Shown here: positions 4,307 to 46,698 of the stretch, piece by piece
Position numbering within the stretch: position 1 is the stretch's first letter
How the letters are laid out: every line of letters begins with the position of its first letter
Virus genome (UHGV): UHGV-1366603
Direction: 5' to 3' (one strand)
DNA from: a virus
DNA: 64,000 nucleotides
The notes under the pieces: generated by a model
The model's input: only the letters and a program-made list of their open reading frames with translations
Database searches by the model: none
What the model was told of the DNA's origin: nothing
Program-made: the position numbers and the translations under genes

Positions 4307-4332
4307 TCAGATATATATTACCTAGAGGAGAG
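4307..4332 (+). promoter_or_regulatory. Copy 1 of recurring promoter-like motif TCAGATATATATTACCTAG(A/G)GGAGAG
   Basis: Near-identical motif also at 8362, 40079 and 44424, always upstream of a + strand gene and followed by a short hairpin. Confidence 0.5.
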
Positions 4333-8079: not shown

Positions 8080-8350
8080 AACAGTTGTATTTTGTAGTAA
8101 TGGTGATGTGGTTTTGTTTCGTGGTAAGAAACGTATTCGTACGTTAGAATACCGAGAAGCAAAACGTTTTGTTGAAGAGTGCGCATGGTTAATGCATTAC
8201 GAAGGGAACTATCGTGCTATCTTAGAAGCGCCGCGTTTAGAACGTGCGGTTGCACAGATGGCAATAGGTAATCCTAAGAACTGTTACCTGGCACGTAAGC
8301 CAAAATACATACAACGCCTTTCGTTAGGCAGCTTTATTGCTGGATTTTAA
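8069..8350 (+). CDS. Hypothetical protein
   Basis: Start trimmed from 8048 to ATG at 8069 (MKRETVV...). Confidence 0.4.
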   Translation: MKRETVVFCSNGDVVLFRGKKRIRTLEYREAKRFVEECAWLMHYEGNYRAILEAPRLERAVAQMAIGNPKNCYLARKPKYIQRLSLGSFIAGF

Positions 8351-8361
8351 TAAAAATAATT

Positions 8362-8387
8362 TCAGATATATATTACCTAGGTGAGAG
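8362..8387 (+). promoter_or_regulatory. Copy 2 of recurring promoter-like motif
   Basis: TCAGATATATATTACCTAGGTGAGAG followed by inverted repeat gtgagag...ctctcac (8381-8402). Confidence 0.5.
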
Positions 8388-8431
8388 TTCAGTTACTCTC
8401 ACTTAACAAAACCATTTTAGGAGAATATACC

Positions 8432-21178: not shown

Positions 21179-21385
21179 TTACCGCCCCCCTGCTCCCTTA
21201 CTACAGCTACCGCTGCACGACCAGCTACATCCACCGTTACAGTTGTAGTGGCTTAAAGGTAAACCGGCAAGGTTATTGGTTGAAGACACGGTACCCTGGT
21301 TTGCAATATAGTTGTTTGCGTTAGCGGTCGTAATATACCCTTCCGCTGTTACTAAACGATCACGAAGGTTCTTAAGGCTAATCAC
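21179..21385 (-). CDS. Cys-rich precursor-like protein C (short core)
   Basis: GTG start at 21383-21385 preceded by GGGAGG, which overlaps the stop of gene B. Translation (V)ISLKNLRDRL...HYNCNGGCSWSCSGSCSKGAGGR shares the leader motif and CGGSCSW core start with A and B. Confidence 0.55.
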   Translation of the reverse strand: MISLKNLRDRLVTAEGYITTANANNYIANQGTVSSTNNLAGLPLSHYNCNGGCSWSCSGSCSKGAGGR

Positions 21386-21387
21386 AA

Positions 21388-21786
21388 TTACCTCCCAGAA
21401 CACCCACCGGAACAAGAACCTGAACAGCCTGAAGAACAGTTCCCTGTACACGCGTTAGAACAGCTCCCCGTGCAACTTCCTGAACACCCACCGGAGCAGG
21501 TATTCGAACATCCGCTACAGCCCGCGCTACAACCTGATACGCAGTTTGCAGAACACGAGGAACCACAACCACCGGATGCGTTTCCTGTGCAGCCACCAGA
21601 ACAACTCGAACACGTCCAGCTACAACTACCTCCGCAGTCGTAGTGATTGCGGGCCTGTCCTCCGAATAAGTCTGCGTTGTTTGTCGCTTTCCCGCGAATA
21701 TAGTTTTGTACTGCACCCGTATTCTTCAATGCAGTGCTGTCAATGTTATTTAACCGCGCTTGTAGCGCAGGTAATCCAATTGCCAT
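21388..21786 (-). CDS. Cys-rich precursor-like protein B (~50-aa leader plus ~80-aa Cys/Gly/Ser core)
   Basis: RBS agaggtg. Core begins HYDCGGSCSWTCS and continues with about 20 Cys at mostly CxxxC spacing, ending GGCSGR. Confidence 0.65.
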   Translation of the reverse strand: MAIGLPALQARLNNIDSTALKNTGAVQNYIRGKATNNADLFGGQARNHYDCGGSCSWTCSSCSGGCTGNASGGCGSSCSANCVSGCSAGCSGCSNTCSGGCSGSCTGSCSNACTGNCSSGCSGSCSGGCSGR

Positions 21787-21796
21787 TTTTCACCTC

Positions 21797-22192
21797 TTAG
21801 GTTGGACCAGAACAGCCGCCAGAGCAGGCACCAGAACAACCCGTAGAACAACGGCCTGAGCAAGCACCCCCACAAGTTCCGCTACAACCTGAACACCCAC
21901 CTGAACACGTTGAGCTACATCCAGTACATTGGTTACCGCACGCAGAGGAGCAGCTGCCTACACACACAGACGTACAAGTACCCGAACAGCTCGTACAACC
22001 ATGCGTACAGCCGTTTGAGCACGTCCAGCTACAACTACCTCCGCAGTCTAACCGGTTTGGCGTCCAACCCGAAAATGTATCGGCTGCATTATGTGCTTTC
22101 GACGCAACTTGCGGATCAACACGTGGGCCAGTTGCCATTTGGTTCTCTACGTTGGTGATTCGGTCACGTACGTTTTTAACACTGATCGCCAT
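21797..22192 (-). CDS. Cys-rich precursor-like protein A
   Basis: ATG at 22190-22192 with RBS aagga (track ORF begins one codon earlier at GTG). Leader MAISVKNVRDRITNVENQ...; core NRLDCGGSCSWTCSNGC... ending SGGCSGPT. Confidence 0.65.
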   Translation of the reverse strand: MAISVKNVRDRITNVENQMATGPRVDPQVASKAHNAADTFSGWTPNRLDCGGSCSWTCSNGCTHGCTSCSGTCTSVCVGSCSSACGNQCTGCSSTCSGGCSGCSGTCGGACSGRCSTGCSGACSGGCSGPT

Positions 22193-22259
22193 CACGTATC
22201 CTTAAAATAAAAAAGAATGGAGGACTACGTCCATAAACATAGTTCCTCCTGTAATTAAA

Positions 22260-38675: not shown

Positions 38676-38885
38676 TTAGTCTTTTTTGTAGACGATCGCG
38701 TTACCGTGCAGTTTGTTGTTACCGGAAATACCGATAACTTTAAACGCTTCACCGCCGATCTTTTCAGCTTCGACAGCCAGCTTAGCAGTAACGTCGTCTA
38801 CGGTGTCACCGAAAGCGCTTACGTTACCAATTTTCTTGAACTCTTCAGGAATGTGTTCAGCAGAAGAGAATTCTTTAATAGCCAT
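38676..38885 (-). CDS. DUF1471 (YhcN/BhsA/McbA-family)-like small protein lacking a signal peptide
   Basis: KKIGNVSAFGDTVDDVTAKLAVEAEKIGGEAFKVIGISGNNKLHGNAIVYKKD matches the conserved core pattern of enterobacterial DUF1471 proteins (from memory); RBS ggagag; no hydrophobic N-terminus. Confidence 0.55.
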   Translation of the reverse strand: MAIKEFSSAEHIPEEFKKIGNVSAFGDTVDDVTAKLAVEAEKIGGEAFKVIGISGNNKLHGNAIVYKKD

Positions 38886-39084: not shown

Positions 39085-40050
39085 TTAGCGTGGGCCTGAA
39101 GTTGGGCCATGTACACCGTCGTGGATGTGTACGCTGAAGGTAATACCGGAAATCACCGCATCCTTAACTGTAAAGACACCCACACCTTCACCCGTACCAC
39201 CGTATTTGAAGTTCTTAGCAACTTCCAAATTACCGGTGAACATCGCTTCATTACCCTCTTGCTTAAAGTTCGGCGTTTTATACGTTGTGGAACCGGAGGC
39301 TTCGGTTAGCCACGTTTCTGTTTTAAAGGTAACCGATTTCGACGCTTCGGTATTCCGAACTTCGCATTTCTCATTAATCGTTTTCGTTTCCAGGTTAATC
39401 GAACGTTTTGCGTAAATGAACGCATCTTCTTTGTTGATGTTCACTTTCGAGAGCATCGCGTTCTCAAAACCTAAATCGTCTTCCACCGAGTTAATGTAAT
39501 ACTTATTCCCTTTATGGTCAACGCACTGCCACGACCCGTTAGCGTTATCGAATTGGAATAACCACGCCGCTTTCTCCCCGTTCACCATACTTGTTCTTAG
39601 GGTAACGTGTTTGTCAATCGTTGAGACGTTTAACACATACGCGTTCGACAAGTCATCCGCCATCTGGTTTTCAGGGTCAGCAGACCACGCGTAAACCGCA
39701 TCCTCTAATCGCTTAACGTTAGCGAAATTCAAATCAATCCAAAAATAAATATCGGTTTGCCCTAGACGTAGCAAGATAACATAATCTTCACGCTTAACGT
39801 CTGGGGAATTAATTCGATTGGAATTAAACTTCCACCACTTTGCGGTAATCGTGTTACCGGTTTTAATCGTTAGGTTGTCGGTAGCACCCCCGGCTTCGTG
39901 TACCTTTTCAGCGGTTGAGGAAACTGACTGTACAACGGTAGGGTTCGCAAAGTTGGTTTCAATGGGAATAACACTCACCCGATCCGTACCACGAGGTTTA
40001 TCTTCCGCGACGATACCAATCGAGAAAAAGTCAACGCTGGATTTCTCCAT
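39085..40050 (-). CDS. Hypothetical protein (321 aa), possibly structural
   Basis: Long ORF with beta-rich composition; no recognisable motif. Confidence 0.5.
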   Translation of the reverse strand: MEKSSVDFFSIGIVAEDKPRGTDRVSVIPIETNFANPTVVQSVSSTAEKVHEAGGATDNLTIKTGNTITAKWWKFNSNRINSPDVKREDYVILLRLGQTDIYFWIDLNFANVKRLEDAVYAWSADPENQMADDLSNAYVLNVSTIDKHVTLRTSMVNGEKAAWLFQFDNANGSWQCVDHKGNKYYINSVEDDLGFENAMLSKVNINKEDAFIYAKRSINLETKTINEKCEVRNTEASKSVTFKTETWLTEASGSTTYKTPNFKQEGNEAMFTGNLEVAKNFKYGGTGEGVGVFTVKDAVISGITFSVHIHDGVHGPTSGPR

Positions 40051-40078
40051 TAGGTCGTTCCTTAGATCGGAAATGTAA

Positions 40079-40130
40079 TCAGATATATTTTACTTAGGTG
40101 AGTAGGGGCTGAAGTGCGAATTCAGCCCCT
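40079..40130 (+). promoter_or_regulatory. Copy 3 of recurring promoter-like motif plus downstream hairpin
   Basis: TCAGATATATTTTACTTAGGTGAG followed by inverted repeat aggggctgaa-gtgcgaa-ttcagcccct. Confidence 0.45.
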
Positions 40131-40438
40131 ATGGGCACGTTTCTTTCGAAACGGAGTTACCATGTGATTAGGAGACAGACCAATGTCTACTGAGAAGAAA
40201 AGCGGATTGGACGAAGTCATCGAATTGTTCAAACGCTACAACCCGGCTATTCCTCGGTAATCATAGTATTACTTAAAATTTACAGATTGTCCCTTTATTC
40301 TGCTACTCGGGATACCGGTAGGGGGTAGGGGGCAATATGTATACGGATATAAATAGCGGAGGTATACGTAGTATACCGACATACTCTTCCCAGAGGAACG
40401 TAGTGACTTCCTTATTCCTTTTTAGGAGAATAAACCTC

Positions 40439-41173
40439 ATGAGAGAATTATTAGACGATATCTTTACCAACACCAGTTTAGAACTTTCTTCTACAGTGGT
40501 TAACGAACTAATAAAACAATCGCAACCTGCTAAGTTAGTCACTGTCAGGGTAGTTAACCCTAAAGATTATCTAGGCTGCGATATCATAAACGGTACGATC
40601 GATGAGTACGCAATTGGTATTTACGCCGACTGGGTCTTCTTTGTTCTTAATACCGAAACCGGTGTCATGTTAACCTACACGATGAGTAGTGATGTCGAAC
40701 ACGAAGTTGTAGCGAAACATATTCGCCACATTGCCAGCACGCCTACCTTTTCCGACGTTACGTTTATTGGGGGAAGCACTATGCTGACGTTATTCTCTTA
40801 CTTCCCACTGTTTAGACATGGGGTAGGGTTAATCAAGCATGTAGAAAACCTTCCCGCTGATGTAGAATTAACGTTGCTCGGTCGGGACATTAGTCTTTAT
40901 CCCTTAAAAGATAACGGTAAGTTATACGGTTTACGTATCTATGTTTCTTGGTTAGAGGGATACCGCGTTATTGAACTGATTGCATCGGATTTAACAAAAC
41001 AAATCCCAGAGGTGGAAACGATTTCTAAAGCCACCCACCTGGTTGAGATTAACCCAGACGATCCGTTTTTACAGTATCACAATGAAATTGCCCTTCGTGG
41101 TATCGCTGCCGTAAAAGGGTGGGGGTGTGCTGAGATTACGAAGGGGTATCTGCTGTTAATTAAAACCGCGTAA
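40439..41173 (+). CDS. Hypothetical protein, member 1 of a tandem four-gene paralog family
   Basis: Start at ATG 40439 (RBS aggag). Shares C-terminal G-W...G..LLF-type motif with the next three genes (weakest in this member). Confidence 0.5.
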   Translation: MRELLDDIFTNTSLELSSTVVNELIKQSQPAKLVTVRVVNPKDYLGCDIINGTIDEYAIGIYADWVFFVLNTETGVMLTYTMSSDVEHEVVAKHIRHIASTPTFSDVTFIGGSTMLTLFSYFPLFRHGVGLIKHVENLPADVELTLLGRDISLYPLKDNGKLYGLRIYVSWLEGYRVIELIASDLTKQIPEVETISKATHLVEINPDDPFLQYHNEIALRGIAAVKGWGCAEITKGYLLLIKTA

Positions 41174-41198
41174 GTAAAAACCTAAAGGAGAAAATATC

Positions 41199-41753
41199 AT
41201 GTTTCAAACTGAACTGAAAATTGAAATTATCCAAACCCTTGAAAAAGGCGTAGGCGAACATTTCTTTAGCTGTCCTTATACCGTACTGACCAATACCATT
41301 ATTCAGCCAGGCGCGATGATAGTAGGGGTGAGGGTACAAGCTGTGGAGGAAACCCCGCTGCGTCGCAACATCACTCGTAAAAACCATATCCCATTTAGAA
41401 CGGGTTTTACAGATTACTTTCAGAGCTTACTGAAAGATAGCGTTTGGAAAACGGGCAGCTTCTTCCACGAAGGGAAGACGTCCACGCTGGTTTATAAAGA
41501 AAATACCAAGTATCTGGTTGATTTTCTCTTAGCGCGGCAATACGATTTCTTTCCATCCCCTTCTGGCACCACCCCTGATAATCCAGGTAAGTTATTAAAC
41601 CAAGACGAAGCCGAAGCACTCTTTACAAAACTTCGGAATGAGCAGTGCGATGTTGACGACTGGGAAACATTGATCGCGGTCGCTAAAGCCCACGGTTGGT
41701 ATACTGTACGTAAACTCGGCCAGCAGTTGTTGTTCTTAGCTTATAATGTTTAA
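41199..41753 (+). CDS. Hypothetical protein, tandem paralog family member 2
   Basis: RBS aaaggag; C-terminus AHGWYTVRKLGQQLLFLAYNV. Confidence 0.5.
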   Translation: MFQTELKIEIIQTLEKGVGEHFFSCPYTVLTNTIIQPGAMIVGVRVQAVEETPLRRNITRKNHIPFRTGFTDYFQSLLKDSVWKTGSFFHEGKTSTLVYKENTKYLVDFLLARQYDFFPSPSGTTPDNPGKLLNQDEAEALFTKLRNEQCDVDDWETLIAVAKAHGWYTVRKLGQQLLFLAYNV

Positions 41754-41781
41754 GTAACGAAAACCCTAAAGGAGAGTAAAA

Positions 41782-42933
41782 ATGCGAAATATTATTTCTA
41801 AACCAGGACATGTCAAAATCCTAAAAGAACTGATGGACAGATGCTATAATCAGACTTGGCCTCTGCCAAGCTTAACCATCGAGTCTTCATTACAACGTGA
41901 GTTGTTTGGTTATAACTTGGGCTGCTGTGTACTTACTGAATACAATGAGATTATCGCGCCTGTCGATATCTGTACTTACGATGAAGAAATTGAAGGTTAC
42001 AAGTTCGCGGTTTACACAAATTCTGGACTAAATTACCGTAAACTCGTTGTTAGAGAAAAGAGTAGCAACCGGAAGATTATGTTTAAAGTCTTCCCAAGTG
42101 GTAAAGTCAGTAATTTATGTTTTCAGCTTGAGCAAGTGCCCTTTCACGGTGCGGACATTTTAACTAAACCAGAACTCGCGTTATTAAGCGGGTTAATCGG
42201 CTTTGAAGCAAAAACCATCAAAGTTGAGCAGGAACTTACACAAAACGATTTCGGCTCAAGTTGGTACGAAAGTTTCTTCCGCTACGAAATGTTAAGTGAT
42301 AAAGCTATCAAACTCACTTACCGTTCTACCGACGATCTCGTTTACCACATTTTAATTAGCGGCGAACCCCACCTGATTATTGAAGACAAAGGAGAAAATC
42401 AAATGTCTGCCTTAAAAGACGAATTAGCCCAATTCATTCGTGACGTTGAAGAGAAAAGCAAGAGCGATCATATTTTCTCACAACGCTATCCTGAACTTAT
42501 TGACGAAACCACCGATAGTGTTGTCGATGGTATACGCATTTTCCCAAGTGGTCTTGCAATTTACCGACTGCCTAGCGTTAACCAGCTTAAAGTCATGGAA
42601 ATGCTAAAAGACGTTTTAGCAGAAGCGGGTTGGGAATATCGCTTCGATTGCAATTTCGAAGGGATGGCGTTATTCGTTACAAAGAAAAACTATACCTTGT
42701 CAATCGATCTGCCTAAAAGTCAATACTACAGTTTCTTCCCAAAAGCGTATGACCGCACTGAAAAAGAACCTGCGATGTTACTTGATGCGGCAGAATCCAA
42801 TACGTTAATGATGCATTTGCGGTCAATTGACAAAAAGTTAAATACTAGTCATTTAACGACGATCGGTAAAGATTACGGTTGGAAATCTGTCGAACCGTAC
42901 GGCAGTCAGCTGCTGTTTGTTGCTGACCTTTAA
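41782..42933 (+). CDS. Hypothetical protein, tandem paralog family member 3
   Basis: RBS aaaggag; C-terminus DYGWKSVEPYGSQLLFVADL. Confidence 0.5.
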   Translation: MRNIISKPGHVKILKELMDRCYNQTWPLPSLTIESSLQRELFGYNLGCCVLTEYNEIIAPVDICTYDEEIEGYKFAVYTNSGLNYRKLVVREKSSNRKIMFKVFPSGKVSNLCFQLEQVPFHGADILTKPELALLSGLIGFEAKTIKVEQELTQNDFGSSWYESFFRYEMLSDKAIKLTYRSTDDLVYHILISGEPHLIIEDKGENQMSALKDELAQFIRDVEEKSKSDHIFSQRYPELIDETTDSVVDGIRIFPSGLAIYRLPSVNQLKVMEMLKDVLAEAGWEYRFDCNFEGMALFVTKKNYTLSIDLPKSQYYSFFPKAYDRTEKEPAMLLDAAESNTLMMHLRSIDKKLNTSHLTTIGKDYGWKSVEPYGSQLLFVADL

Positions 42934-43000
42934 TAAGTGAAAATACACTTTCTCTAACTGCCGCGCTTTAGTCGCGGCTTTTGTTAAGAAGGAAATAGAA

Positions 43001-43774
43001 ATGAAAGTCCATTTAGACGATATCTTTAAAACCGAACCGTATATGATCGAAGGTCCGCTAACGTCCCTACTATTCGCCGATAGACTAGATCGTACGTTGC
43101 AATTACAATCGGTCGAATCTGCACCGATTAACGATGTAGAGCGCTACGAGCGTATCAACCATACGCGGGGTGAGTATCGTCGCTATAAGCCAAACTCACT
43201 AACCATCAAACTTTGGAAAGTAAGCACAGGTAAAGTATTAACTTATCGCGCCGTTGGTAGTTATTACATTCAACAGGCCAAAGAGTGGTTAGAAAAAGTT
43301 AAAGAACTGAACTTCGATCTACTGAGCAAAAAACTGCGCGATCATAACGCCAGTTTGCCGATACGTAATTATTTCGCCACGATTGAAAATAGTCGTTGCT
43401 TCGTTTCCAGCAAGTCTATGATCTTACCCGGGGCTGATGTTCAAACAACACTGAAAGATGTGGTTGTGAAGAAAATCTTTCATGAATCTGAACACGTTGG
43501 ATTTCGTATCTATTTAACGCACAAGAGGCCATTTACCGTGATTCATGTTGTTACCGCACCCGAAGGCTCAGCAGTCGTACGTGAACTTCCTGACGCACGT
43601 GACCGCAGCCCTAATGAGCCGCTTTACTTAATGTCAGGAACAAAATCAGAATCTTTGATGTCCCGTTACAGCATGGTTGATGTTGTTGATACTGCTATGA
43701 AGTTAGGTTGGAAAGAAGTACAGCAGCACGGCAAACAATTGCTGTTTATCGCAGATGTAAATCTCAATAACTAA
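43001..43774 (+). CDS. Hypothetical protein, tandem paralog family member 4
   Basis: C-terminus KLGWKEVQQHGKQLLFIADV. Confidence 0.5.
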   Translation: MKVHLDDIFKTEPYMIEGPLTSLLFADRLDRTLQLQSVESAPINDVERYERINHTRGEYRRYKPNSLTIKLWKVSTGKVLTYRAVGSYYIQQAKEWLEKVKELNFDLLSKKLRDHNASLPIRNYFATIENSRCFVSSKSMILPGADVQTTLKDVVVKKIFHESEHVGFRIYLTHKRPFTVIHVVTAPEGSAVVRELPDARDRSPNEPLYLMSGTKSESLMSRYSMVDVVDTAMKLGWKEVQQHGKQLLFIADVNLNN

Positions 43775-43786
43775 AGAGGTGGTACC

Positions 43787-44365
43787 GTGTACCGATTAAT
43801 AGAAATGAGAAAAGACGTTTGGTTGGAAAACCTCGTCGATGGGGAGCTTGAGGGAATAGAGCTTTCCTTACCAGAGAGAGCGGACACGGTATTGGCCTTT
43901 CTGGTAAAACAGGCAGACCGTGAACCGGTAGGAATCTTCACTGTGGACTATAAAGATCCACGAGGAATTCATTTACGGAACATTTGCAGTGGTTTGGAAA
44001 ACTTACCGGCTAATCCGTTCTTAAACTACGCAAAACGTAAACTCCAAACGGGACAACACCTCTGGGTAACGTTATCGCCTGACGTTAGGATCATACGTGA
44101 CGATTACTCGGCGTTTGTACAGGCAACGAAAGTCAGTCTGTATAACCCGAACGCAGAGCGTACCGATATGCCGTTTATAATTACCTTAGAAGACGATGGA
44201 ACGCAAGAAGGTATTGAGGCAATTACGGAATTAGTAAATTCTTATCCGGTTGCCACTATTGAGTTAGAAAACCCAAACCGATTACCGTTGGGTGACCTGC
44301 TCGAATGGATCGAACTGAATACAGAATTCTTAATCAATTCTCGTCAGTATCGATTCGACGTTTAA
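43787..44365 (+). CDS. Hypothetical protein
   Basis: GTG start with RBS aagaggtgg; 192 aa; followed by terminator. Confidence 0.45.
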   Translation: MYRLIEMRKDVWLENLVDGELEGIELSLPERADTVLAFLVKQADREPVGIFTVDYKDPRGIHLRNICSGLENLPANPFLNYAKRKLQTGQHLWVTLSPDVRIIRDDYSAFVQATKVSLYNPNAERTDMPFIITLEDDGTQEGIEAITELVNSYPVATIELENPNRLPLGDLLEWIELNTEFLINSRQYRFDV

Positions 44366-44369
44366 CAAC

Positions 44370-44400
44370 GGTGGGGTGTAAGCCCCACCTTTTATTTTTT
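44370..44400 (+). terminator. Intrinsic terminator
   Basis: Hairpin ggtgggg-tgtaa-gccccacc followed by a T-run. Confidence 0.7.
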
Positions 44401-44423
44401 GTTCGCTAACATTAAAAATAATC

Positions 44424-44449
44424 TCAGATATATATTACTCAGGTGAGAG
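44424..44449 (+). promoter_or_regulatory. Copy 4 of recurring promoter-like motif
   Basis: TCAGATATATATTACTCAGGTGAGAG followed by an imperfect inverted repeat; precedes the secreted-protein array. Confidence 0.5.
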
Positions 44450-44494
44450 TTAAGATTAACTCTTTTACTTGTTAACCCCACGAGGAGCAAAACA

Positions 44495-44956
44495 ATGAAA
44501 ATCTTCACTTCCTTTTTAATCGCCCTTTTCGCAATCGGATTCAATACTGCACACGCCGCAATCAATAGCTGGGAACAACTACCGAACCCAGGTCAGACTG
44601 TTTACGAAATTGAAGACACCGCCGGAAACGGACTGTCTATCAACTGTGACACTGAAACTGCGAATCGCAAATTTTACGGTCGTATGGTTTGGTATTACGG
44701 GGAACCTGTAGGTGCAACTAACGCTGAAGACAACACGATGGATATCGTCGTAAATGGCAAAACCTACAACATCCCTACGGTGGATGGCAGTGACAAAGCA
44801 GAGCTCGCTTGGGTGGCTTTCGTTAACGCTATCGGTAACGCCAAAACTTTCAGTGTGAACATCAATGGTAACGAAGCTGCTAACTTTACCGTAGAAGGCG
44901 AACGTCTGTCTGAAACTTTCTTCCAGAACTGTGGACACACCCGTCCTAACAAATAA
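44495..44956 (+). CDS. Small secreted protein 1 (signal peptide)
   Basis: MKIFTSFLIALFAIGFNTAHAA; two Cys in mature part. Confidence 0.55.
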   Translation: MKIFTSFLIALFAIGFNTAHAAINSWEQLPNPGQTVYEIEDTAGNGLSINCDTETANRKFYGRMVWYYGEPVGATNAEDNTMDIVVNGKTYNIPTVDGSDKAELAWVAFVNAIGNAKTFSVNINGNEAANFTVEGERLSETFFQNCGHTRPNK

Positions 44957-44978
44957 GTAATAATCTTTTTTAGAGTGC

Positions 44979-45371
44979 GTGAAAATGAATATCAGAACTA
45001 TACTTTATTCAATCATTATTTTCTGTGCAATCGGTATTACTGGCACTTATGCTTTCGGCGATTCGGACGTCCGCCATTACGAACCGGCTCCTGACTCGCC
45101 CATTATCAACCCGGATGAGTCCCCTACGTTAATGCGCAGTTTCGGTAAACTGCAAGTTTATCGCTTAGTACGTGGTGAAACGTGTACCGGATTACTCATT
45201 GCTGACACCCGTGCACAGGTCTACCAACGTCTGACGGATATCGCCTGCGAACAACCAAAAGTCATGTCGGTCAGTATTCATCCGTTAGAGGTCGGTAACT
45301 ATACTGCTGTGGACTTCTTCCATAATGCAGAACTGATTGGTCGTATCACTTTAAATCGTAGCGCTGAATAA
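44979..45371 (+). CDS. Small secreted protein 2 (signal peptide)
   Basis: GTG at 44979 or ATG at 44985; hydrophobic ILYSIIIFCAIGITGTYA N-terminus. Confidence 0.5.
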   Translation: MKMNIRTILYSIIIFCAIGITGTYAFGDSDVRHYEPAPDSPIINPDESPTLMRSFGKLQVYRLVRGETCTGLLIADTRAQVYQRLTDIACEQPKVMSVSIHPLEVGNYTAVDFFHNAELIGRITLNRSAE

Positions 45372-45389
45372 TTTAATGGAGAATTTACA

Positions 45390-45872
45390 ATGAAACGTTT
45401 ACACACCCTGATGCTTTTCGTGGCTATTCTGTTCACAGGCTTTACCTTTAACACAGAAGCGGCTACCGTAAAACAAGCACTTAGCTGTAACCCGGAAGCC
45501 TGGGCTGAACAACCTGGTGCGTGTCCTGACATCAATACGCTCTATACCGACGACGCGACTTATAAAGCCGCAATCGATAAAGCGTTGAAACCTGTCGGAC
45601 TAGACGGGTTATTCGGTAAAGATGGTGTAATGAATGGTCCTGGCGGCGATGTTATTCCCGTGCAAATCAACGGTAAAGTCTGGCTTGAGTCTACCGCTTG
45701 CAAAAGCAATGCTTGTGGTTGGGAATACATCACGACGCTTTATAACCCGCAGACCCATGTCGTGGTAGGTTACTATTACAACGTCGACCCAGGTTACCTG
45801 GTCTGGTTCGGCGATATCGGCGTTAACGAATTCGCCTATCTGGTTAAGAAATACGTAGCTACGGTTAATTAA
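45390..45872 (+). CDS. Small secreted protein 3 (signal peptide)
   Basis: MKRLHTLMLFVAILFTGFTFNTEAA; four Cys in mature part. Confidence 0.55.
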   Translation: MKRLHTLMLFVAILFTGFTFNTEAATVKQALSCNPEAWAEQPGACPDINTLYTDDATYKAAIDKALKPVGLDGLFGKDGVMNGPGGDVIPVQINGKVWLESTACKSNACGWEYITTLYNPQTHVVVGYYYNVDPGYLVWFGDIGVNEFAYLVKKYVATVN

Positions 45873-45887
45873 TTTAAGGAGTCTGTC

Positions 45888-46298
45888 ATGAAAACGTTTA
45901 TCAAAACTTTACTCGTTGCTGTAACTGTTCTGTTCTCTCTTAACGTAGCAGCAAAAACAATAAAGCTACCGGCGGGTATCAAATACGTCAACAGTACCGA
46001 TGAATTCTACTGCACTGAAATTGACGGCCTGTATTGCCAGACAAAGAATTTGTTTGAATACAAAGGTAACAGATATGTTTTCGTTGTTGAGCAAGGTGGT
46101 GCCTGGTGCTACGACAGCCCTATGTCGGTACTCAACCTGGAAACTTGGAAAGCACAGAAAATTGAATACAAAGACAACCAACTGTGTTCAGGCGAAAACA
46201 AACCGTTCTTCAAAATCAAAAATGGTGTGCCGACTGTAGGTATTATCGACACCTCTGGAGCACCCATCGTTGTAGCTCAGGACAAACTTAAAATCTAA
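45888..46298 (+). CDS. Small secreted protein 4 (signal peptide)
   Basis: MKTFIKTLLVAVTVLFSLNVAAK; four Cys. Confidence 0.55.
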   Translation: MKTFIKTLLVAVTVLFSLNVAAKTIKLPAGIKYVNSTDEFYCTEIDGLYCQTKNLFEYKGNRYVFVVEQGGAWCYDSPMSVLNLETWKAQKIEYKDNQLCSGENKPFFKIKNGVPTVGIIDTSGAPIVVAQDKLKI

Positions 46299-46308
46299 GG
46301 AGTAAACC

Positions 46309-46698
46309 ATGCGTCTTATCTGCGCTTTGTTGGCGTTTTTCTCAATCGGAGTTATGGCTTCTACACACATCGACGATTTATTACTTACCCCGGCAACGAA
46401 CACAGACTATCACTACAACCCACCGGGTTTTGAAGTCTGCGAAGGCGATGCAGGCGAATGCCAAGAAGTTGGCGCAGATGGACGCTATATACTCGTAAAA
46501 GCAGACGGCGGGACAACCTGCCCTGCGGGTTATTATTTCGTACTTGACGCTGTAGCAAAAGAGGTACTTCCTGTAACGACCAAAACGTGTGACCCCACAG
46601 TTGTACTAACGCTTGCGAAAAGCAAATCACGTGACCGCCATCTTATCGTCATCGAAGAACGCGGTGAGATGCTAGGCGCTATCGAATTAGATTACTGA
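46309..46698 (+). CDS. Small secreted protein 5 (signal peptide)
   Basis: MRLICALLAFFSIGVMAS; Cys pairs CEGDAGEC and CPAG...C. Confidence 0.55.
   Translation: MRLICALLAFFSIGVMASTHIDDLLLTPATNTDYHYNPPGFEVCEGDAGECQEVGADGRYILVKADGGTTCPAGYYFVLDAVAKEVLPVTTKTCDPTVVLTLAKSKSRDRHLIVIEERGEMLGAIELDY

Follow-up and report, generated by a model that had tools for sequence, protein, structure and literature searches.

A tandem gene array in an SPN3US/Asesino-like jumbo phage combines a shared folded C-terminal domain with exchangeable N-terminal parts

The virus genome UHGV-1366603, of which a stretch of 64,000 nucleotides was analyzed here (the window), belongs to an enterobacterial jumbo phage of the SPN3US/Asesino type and carries four consecutive genes, A to D, at positions 40439-43774. 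Judged from their sequences, B, C and D are certain members of one family, the proteins of which share a C-terminal module of approximately 65-70 amino acids (aa), and A is a probable fourth member. The module is under much stronger constraint than the rest of the proteins, and recombination between phages swaps the N-terminal parts, which we call heads; the breakpoints are located at the border of the conserved part. The reading that we tentatively favor, at not quite an even chance, is that these are early accessory host-interaction proteins in which a constant C-terminal 'handle' is combined with exchangeable N-terminal 'heads'.

Gene A (40439-41173, 244 aa, with a good ribosome-binding site (RBS)), gene B (41199-41753, 184 aa), gene C (41782-42933, 383 aa) and gene D (43001-43774, 257 aa) are all located on the plus strand and are flanked by a divergent baseplate-assembly gene (39085-40050, phrog_3216) and by gene E. 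An earlier note on this DNA (the original prediction) had given the coordinates and lengths of the four open reading frames (ORFs) correctly and had claimed that all of them end with a related motif, G-W-x-x-V-x-x-x-G-x-Q-L-L-F-[LVI]-A. The exact motif is indeed present at the ends of B184, C383 and D257, and in the six-frame translation of the window it matched these three ends only. Membership was scored on 624 window ORFs with a hidden Markov model (HMM) built solely from homologues in other phages. D obtained the top score (E-value 3.8e-23, 76 bits), followed by C (1e-14) and B (5.5e-13), which puts the similarity of these three proteins, for which a profile search had been proposed as a check, far beyond chance; no other window ORF was significant.

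The claim of a common end motif does not extend to A244. This protein ends with GWGCAEITKGYLLLIKTA, which is without the V, has the G shifted by one position and carries Y for Q, L for F and K for A, and it was not significant with the external-only HMM (E = 1). B, C and D possess all positions of the invariant P...P...GW...G.Q.L pattern at the extreme C-terminus, whereas A retains only the P, GW and LL. A profile of A and 15 orthologues was nevertheless aligned to the module by hhalign in the correct C-terminal register (Prob 62-68%, P 5e-5), with residues 212-243 of A falling on module positions 37-68, and A is colinear with the D family across 169 columns (Prob 54%, P 1.3e-4). The A orthologues are 48-98% identical. 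We therefore regard A as a probable divergent, accessory member with a putative degenerate module at 40973-41170 (approximately aa 179-244). A longer form of A starting at 40337 was rejected, since the in-frame extension is not kept in relatives (the leader of the related locus L006 is 2 nt shorter) and since the RBS precedes 40439.

The conserved unit is considerably larger than the end motif. An alignment of SPN3US gp175, Phobos gp176 and 26 representatives from an exhaustive search showed that it comprises approximately 65-70 aa and starts with [LI]PDxxDR[ST]xN[ED]PxYLMS. The complete pattern is [LI]PDxxDR[ST]xN[ED]PxYLMSxK, a helix, a loop of 0 to approximately 30 residues, a second helix ending with AKxxGW, and finally xxVxxxGxQLLF[IV][AS]. 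In the window, the module is located at 41547-41750 in B (aa 117-184; the external-only HMM covers ORF residues 122-188), at 42724-42930 in C (aa 315-383) and at 43574-43771 in D (aa 192-257), where it has the canonical form LPDARDRSPNEPLYLMS...GWKEVQQHGKQLLFIAD. AlphaFold2 predicts the same beta-alpha-alpha-beta-beta topology in the models of B and C. The model of B has a mean predicted local distance difference test score (pLDDT) of 82 and a predicted template modeling score (pTM) of 0.73, with a module pLDDT above 90 (about 90-97), and the C-terminal half of C reaches a pLDDT of approximately 80. The GW...QLLF motif forms the last two beta strands, i.e. the final hairpin, of these models, and the hydrophobic strand of this hairpin is presumably buried. 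The original prediction had seen in the motif a tail through which the proteins dock to a common partner. The notion of a linear tail was not borne out: the proposed alignment (of B, C and D) and structure prediction (of B and C) revealed a shared domain, but no separate tail of 16 aa, and the motif is part of a confidently predicted fold. Since complete stand-alone modules of 72-130 aa occur in other phages, the module can be regarded as an autonomous domain.

Searches of the four window proteins and 26 relatives against Pfam, NCBIfam, PADLOC and the sequences of the PDB gave nothing meaningful, with no Pfam family at E-values up to 0.05-0.1. A significant fold match to the module was not found either; the weak structural neighbors include winged-helix dimerisation or contact domains, such as the N-terminal domain of an O-methyltransferase, Nse1 and the PCI domain of eIF3a. 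Among the matches in BFVD, A0A345BL08, A0A345BKV6 and A0A345BLK1 (the last one from Erwinia phage Wellington) share one accession prefix, and A0A8E7L3B6, A0A8E7L372 and A0A8E7L400 share another. These prefixes may indicate one phage per group and, if so, there might exist paralogues of similar fold in other jumbo phages that are missed by sequence.

With regard to the relations within the array, B is homologous to the whole C-terminal half of C (B 4-181 versus C 209-381, hhalign Prob 100%, E 9.5e-41). B therefore represents the minimal form, an alpha/beta subdomain followed by the module, and C consists of a variable N-terminal head (aa 1-205) and a B-like body (aa 206-383). In contrast, the region that B and D as well as C and D have in common is the module only (Prob 95-97%; 96.6% for C and D). 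The view that the rest of the proteins diverges thus has to be modified: the N-terminal parts do differ in length and sequence and the module is more constrained, which agrees with a paralogous family defined by its C-terminal module, but the conserved unit spans 65-70 aa and B and C share still more (C aa 209-381). In pairwise comparison, the modules of B, C and D show only 25-36% identity, and that of D is closer to the modules encoded by single-copy genes elsewhere (37-42%). This indicates that the array is old and speaks against the recent tandem diversification that had been suggested. Among the members, D is nearest to the syntenic gene of other phages and corresponds to the one copy that SPN3US-, Asesino- and CR5/Derbicus-like jumbo phages carry at this locus. 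B and C are an old pair of duplicates, and A is a probable, strongly diverged fourth member.

The variability of the block becomes evident from relatives in which the flanking proteins are 97-100% identical and the flanks show 0.08-0.2 synonymous substitutions per site (dS). Against this background the identity is 68% for A, where this gene is not absent altogether, 43-46% for B, 62-96% for C and 83-97% for D. Gene A is precisely absent in L006 (7615-8000, compared with window positions 40051-41198) and in L007, where the same leader and RBS are joined straight to the start codon of B. Within D, the comparison with L005 and L026 gives a dS of 0.79 for the N-terminal part and of 0.02-0.05 for the module, and within C the values are 1.2 and 0.10, respectively. 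In windows of 100 nt against L026, the identity rises from approximately 50% to 91-100% near 42400, which is the border between the extra head and the B-like body of C, and from 70-88% to 96-100% near 43500. Moreover, the window alleles of A and B recur at 93-94% identity in L021, although the backbone of L021 is only 86-88% identical, and the alleles of the Erwinia phages combine modules of approximately 90% or more identity with mosaic heads of 20-40% identity. The gene-wide ratio of nonsynonymous to synonymous substitutions (dN/dS) is 0.1-0.4. Positive selection is for this reason not claimed; the diversity rather reflects old alleles that were reassorted by recombination.

The closest named relatives of the window phage are the Erwinia phages Asesino and phiEaH2, with approximately 76% nucleotide identity in the structural genes; a megablast search of the block against the phage collection gave no match. 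Near-identical contigs of 222-227 kb are present in metagenomes and in Salmonella, E. coli and Shigella assemblies. The orthologue sources (proteins P0002, P0046, P0054, P0069, P0127, P0143, P0155 and others) are contigs of 220-227 kb from assemblies that carry the labels Salmonella enterica, E. coli and Shigella flexneri or sonnei, and complete genomes of the window phage clade therefore appear to be carried along in isolate cultures.

When 1.84 billion representative proteins were searched with a profile, 32 clusters (50% identity) were returned at E-values up to 1e-3. Thirty of them match only the module (profile positions of approximately 106-181), always at the C-termini of proteins of 72-412 aa, and the remaining two look like repeat-protein noise. 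Within the phage collection the module was detected in 32-42 records, depending on the search and at one place per record each time; these include SPN3US-like Salmonella phages, Erwinia phages, Cronobacter phage CR5 and Proteus phage 7. A degenerate DNA pattern search for module loci gave 12 true and 7 chance hits. SPN3US, Asesino, SPAsTU and Phobos possess a single gene of variable length (223-412 aa) at the same locus, adjoining the baseplate gene, so that the position downstream of the divergent baseplate-assembly gene is conserved. The same module is found in SPN3US gp175 (SPN3US_0175, YP_009153469), Phobos gp176, Asesino gp195 and genes of CR5, Derbicus and EarlPhillipIV. Like the genes of the window, these combine a constant C-terminus with a highly variable N-terminus, but they are present in one copy instead of three or four in tandem, and their N-terminal parts have no detectable sequence similarity to those of the window genes. 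PHROG matches were found for C and D, and the PHROGs of the gp175-type family (26772, 33648, 24489 and 18480) are all of 'unknown function'. Mentions of 'gp175' in the literature refer to other proteins, the phiKZ protease or the PhiPA3 RecA.

Stand-alone modules occur in several other settings: between an N6/N4 DNA methyltransferase gene and a Bro-N gene, in the vicinity of genes for a T4-type RNA ligase and an AAA protein, and, in other jumbo phages, beside glutaredoxin or thioredoxin genes and close to PhuZ. On one short contig, a Tad2-like gene follows approximately 0.5 kb downstream of the module gene, and the interval contains no called gene. These neighborhoods are non-structural regions. 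The proximity to the Tad2-like gene is a link to anti-defence by context only, and no match to anti-defence or defence families was obtained with PADLOC, Pfam and NCBIfam. In two loci on unrelated contigs (L012 5156-6231 and L013 2-1112) an ORF of approximately 280 aa ends only 3-17 nt before the start of the stand-alone module gene. This pair could be a split head-plus-module architecture or a frameshift; the upstream ORFs have no similarity to known heads.

The region upstream of A suggests that the block is probably transcribed early. It contains the early-promoter-like motif TCAGATATATTTTACTTAGGTGAG (40079-40102, plus strand), one of four plus-strand copies of the 24-nt motif TCAGATATAT[A/T]TTAC[CT][TC]AGGTGAG in the window (4307-4330, 8362-8385, 40079-40102 and 44424-44447), compared with 0-0.04 matches expected by chance. 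The motif resembles the predicted early promoter of phiKZ, TATATTAC, and that of 201phi2-1 (PMC7058600 Table 2; PMC7598289), and in Phobos, CR5 and Derbicus it immediately precedes the module gene. Each copy in the window is followed by a short hairpin, and 8333-8405 and 44395-44467 share a repeat of 73 nt. Just 3' of the copy upstream of A there is the hairpin AGGGGCTGAA / TTCAGCCCCT (40104-40130, plus strand) with a compensatory change in L004. A micro-ORF of 25 aa, MSTEKKSGLDEVIELFKRYNPAIPR, with the RBS AGGAGA follows at 40183-40260 (plus strand), in the stretch that separates the promoter-like motif from the leader. L005 encodes a diverged peptide, MFVEQKDGIEEVVRLFRHCSPYLPR, that is colinear with it, and in L004 the micro-ORF is deleted.

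The untranslated leader itself (40265-40430, plus strand) holds GGTAGGGGGTAGGGGG and the hairpin GGTATAC-GTA-GTATACC followed by GACAT. Its approximately 170 nt are nearly 100% identical in L004-L007 and L026, where the dS of the flanking genes is 0.1-0.8. The 3' part and the hairpin CGGAGGTA..TACCGACAT are kept in Asesino, SPN3US and SPAsTU with compensatory changes, and the leader is partly present in L008, L001 and L009, upstream of a gp174-like gene. There is no Rfam match and no tRNA in the leader, and the z-score of its single-sequence fold is only -2.0. It is possibly a regulatory RNA or DNA element. A terminator-like hairpin with a T run is located between C and D (42960-42978, plus strand), and the block is closed after E by a further terminator-like hairpin (44370-44389) and the promoter-like motif at 44424-44447 (together 44370-44447, plus strand).

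This arrangement is reminiscent of the hyperplastic regions of T4-like phages, which are bounded by promoter-early/stem-loop cassettes (PeSLs) that shuffle early ORFan genes (PMC2839356, PMC4122927). The promoter motifs of the window look like PeSLs together with their hairpins and the upstream terminators, and elements of this kind bracket the block at 40079-40130 and 44370-44447. Variable early-type genes without assigned function in a conserved backbone as well as the presence or absence of whole genes and allele replacement between near-identical phages are further common features. However, the window phage belongs to another lineage with a promoter type like that of virion RNA polymerases, and several of the breakpoints in the window lie inside genes at the domain border and not at regulatory cassettes.

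The module family also resembles the Bro-N, KilA-N and ANT (KilA-C) domains in occurring with varied partners, in several copies, in stand-alone and fused forms and in accessory regions, and one stand-alone module gene adjoins a Bro-N gene. Iyer, Koonin and Aravind reportedly described these domains in 2002 as domain-shuffled multi-gene families of DNA viruses and phages. They are small conserved domains that are attached to many unrelated partners, are found in several copies per genome, stand-alone as well as fused, and lie in non-structural accessory regions. In contrast to them, the module is C-terminal and nucleic-acid binding by it is not supported, and there is no relationship in sequence, as the Pfam search assigned none of these three domains to the four window proteins or the 26 other members.

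Taken together, we infer early timing, partner binding and a role in host interaction for the products of A to D. They appear to constitute a small, phage-restricted family of intracellular, non-virion accessory proteins of two parts, a constant folded domain of approximately 65-70 aa at the C-terminus and a variable head at the N-terminus. The block would be transcribed early from a promoter of the virion-RNA-polymerase type through the conserved leader. The constant domain could serve as a common handle that binds a single invariant partner (either a component of the host or some generic ligand), or it could provide a common activity, and the exchangeable heads would supply different specificities. 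As head swapping between near-identical phages is typical of host-interaction genes, the observed pattern fits such a role, and the array might consist of host-takeover or counter-defence factors in an arms race. Any partner should not be specific to the window phage group, since stand-alone modules occur in unrelated phage backgrounds.

Several points weigh against this reading. The membership of A depends entirely on hhalign probabilities of 54-68%, the distance from the promoter-like motif to A is approximately 350 nt, C and D have a terminator-like hairpin between them, and the loci of SPN3US and Asesino are without the early-promoter motif directly upstream of their copy. Furthermore, the gene-wide dN/dS gives no evidence of pervasive positive selection, and the anti-defence neighborhoods come from few contigs and are suggestive only.

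A more specific version, which we consider rather unlikely, is that the handle, a previously undescribed domain of jumbo phages and some other phage-like contigs, tethers interchangeable heads to one conserved host hub, so that an array with cassette exchange rapidly re-targets early takeover or counter-defence. The family would then be a phage counterpart of polymorphic effector families, and the invariant leader might control dosage.

It is about equally unlikely that the module is a stability or self-association domain, for example for dimerisation, and that the specific function resides entirely in the N-terminal heads. The winged-helix dimerisation and contact domains among the weak structural neighbors, the hydrophobic last strand and the packing of the B module on the preceding subdomain as one compact unit (pTM 0.73) would fit such a role. 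However, headless module genes of 72-100 aa are kept in several unrelated phages, which argues for an activity of the module itself, and the polar loop DR[ST]xN[ED]P, which is conserved, resembles a functional surface more than a core.

Somewhat less probable still is a winged-helix-like domain that binds nucleic acids, which would turn the proteins into regulators whose variable heads are sensors or effectors and whose target is maybe the conserved leader. The inter-helix loop varies from 0 to approximately 30 residues and the net charge of the module lies between -3 and +3, and a long variable loop together with a near-neutral charge speaks against a canonical DNA-binding helix-turn-helix. 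Neither the tight, length-constrained turn nor the basic DNA-binding surface of winged-helix domains was found in the module, and it gave no significant superposition on solved winged-helix domains.

The proteins could also be host-range factors of the tail or baseplate that are anchored to the virion by the C-terminal domain and expose variable heads. The block directly adjoins baseplate and tail genes, and hypervariability of genes within an otherwise conserved backbone is a typical feature of receptor-binding proteins. Nevertheless, we regard this as improbable. The mass-spectrometry table of the SPN3US virion lists gp167-171, gp173 and next gp193, but gp175 is absent from it; homologues of gp175 were reported for PhiEaH2 and CR5 and none for phiKZ (PMC5105663). 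By analogy with this SPN3US homologue, to which the table applies, the A to D family would consist of non-virion proteins. In addition, A to D lie on the strand opposite to the structural genes and behind an early-type promoter motif, stand-alone forms are found among nucleotide-metabolism and early-type genes, the models have no fibre-like repeats or beta-helix features, and all 42 phage records annotate the homologue as hypothetical. Finally, that the C-terminal similarity is a chance or low-complexity artefact without a real family is refuted for B, C and D by independent-profile E-values of 5e-13 to 4e-23, by homologues in dozens of other phages and by the confidently predicted domain with purifying selection acting on it, and such an explanation could fit A244 (E = 1) alone.

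Gene E (43787-44365, plus strand) encodes an acidic protein of 192 aa (phrog_20879) outside the family. E192 was considered as a general conserved partner of the module and rejected, as its SPN3US homologue is gp177 and not the product of the adjacent gene; a homologue was not found at the loci of CR5, Phobos and Derbicus, for which the downstream flanks were of limited length. Further downstream, five successive small ORFs (44495-46698, plus strand; 153, 130, 160, 136 and 129 aa) each have a signal-peptide-like start. Their window copies have no Pfam match; relatives of the first one carry a precomputed match to PF27224 (YfjT). Among phages that are otherwise similar, the small ORFs F, H, I and J vary 65-80%, and L005 has a replacement of F. 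On the other side of the block, a gene for a YdgH/BhsA-like protein of 69 aa (38676-38885, minus strand; PF07338, DUF1471) is located inside the baseplate gene cluster. It is kept in SPN3US, Asesino and SPAsTU, where it is annotated as stress-resistance protein BhsA. Degenerate tandem repeats rich in CCAGAACA / CCACC, which are rich in Pro and Glu when translated, are present at 21200-22200 (minus strand) in small ORFs adjoining large tail genes.

The family is already present in databases in the form of hypothetical proteins and PHROGs without function, and the locus fits a familiar theme, that of islands of variable accessory genes and of viral multi-gene families with shuffled domains. The papers and annotated records that we searched contained no description of the domain boundaries, of the module as a stand-alone protein, of its tandem expansion in the window clade, of the swapping of heads at the domain border or of the early-promoter context.

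Most genes of nucleus-forming jumbo phages are without a known function, and the early genes are a likely place for takeover and counter-defence factors. The locus described here offers a delimited, autonomous domain of 65-70 aa without a Pfam model or a structural relative. The natural head-swap variants in otherwise isogenic phages are a ready-made experiment, the accessory member A is present or absent between relatives, and the stand-alone versions of the domain can serve for biochemistry. If the module binds a conserved host component, the identity of this component would reveal a target on which several phage lineages have converged. If it does not, the locus still provides a documented case of a hypervariable island, with its recombination breakpoints, from a phage often encountered in Salmonella, E. 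coli and Shigella assemblies.

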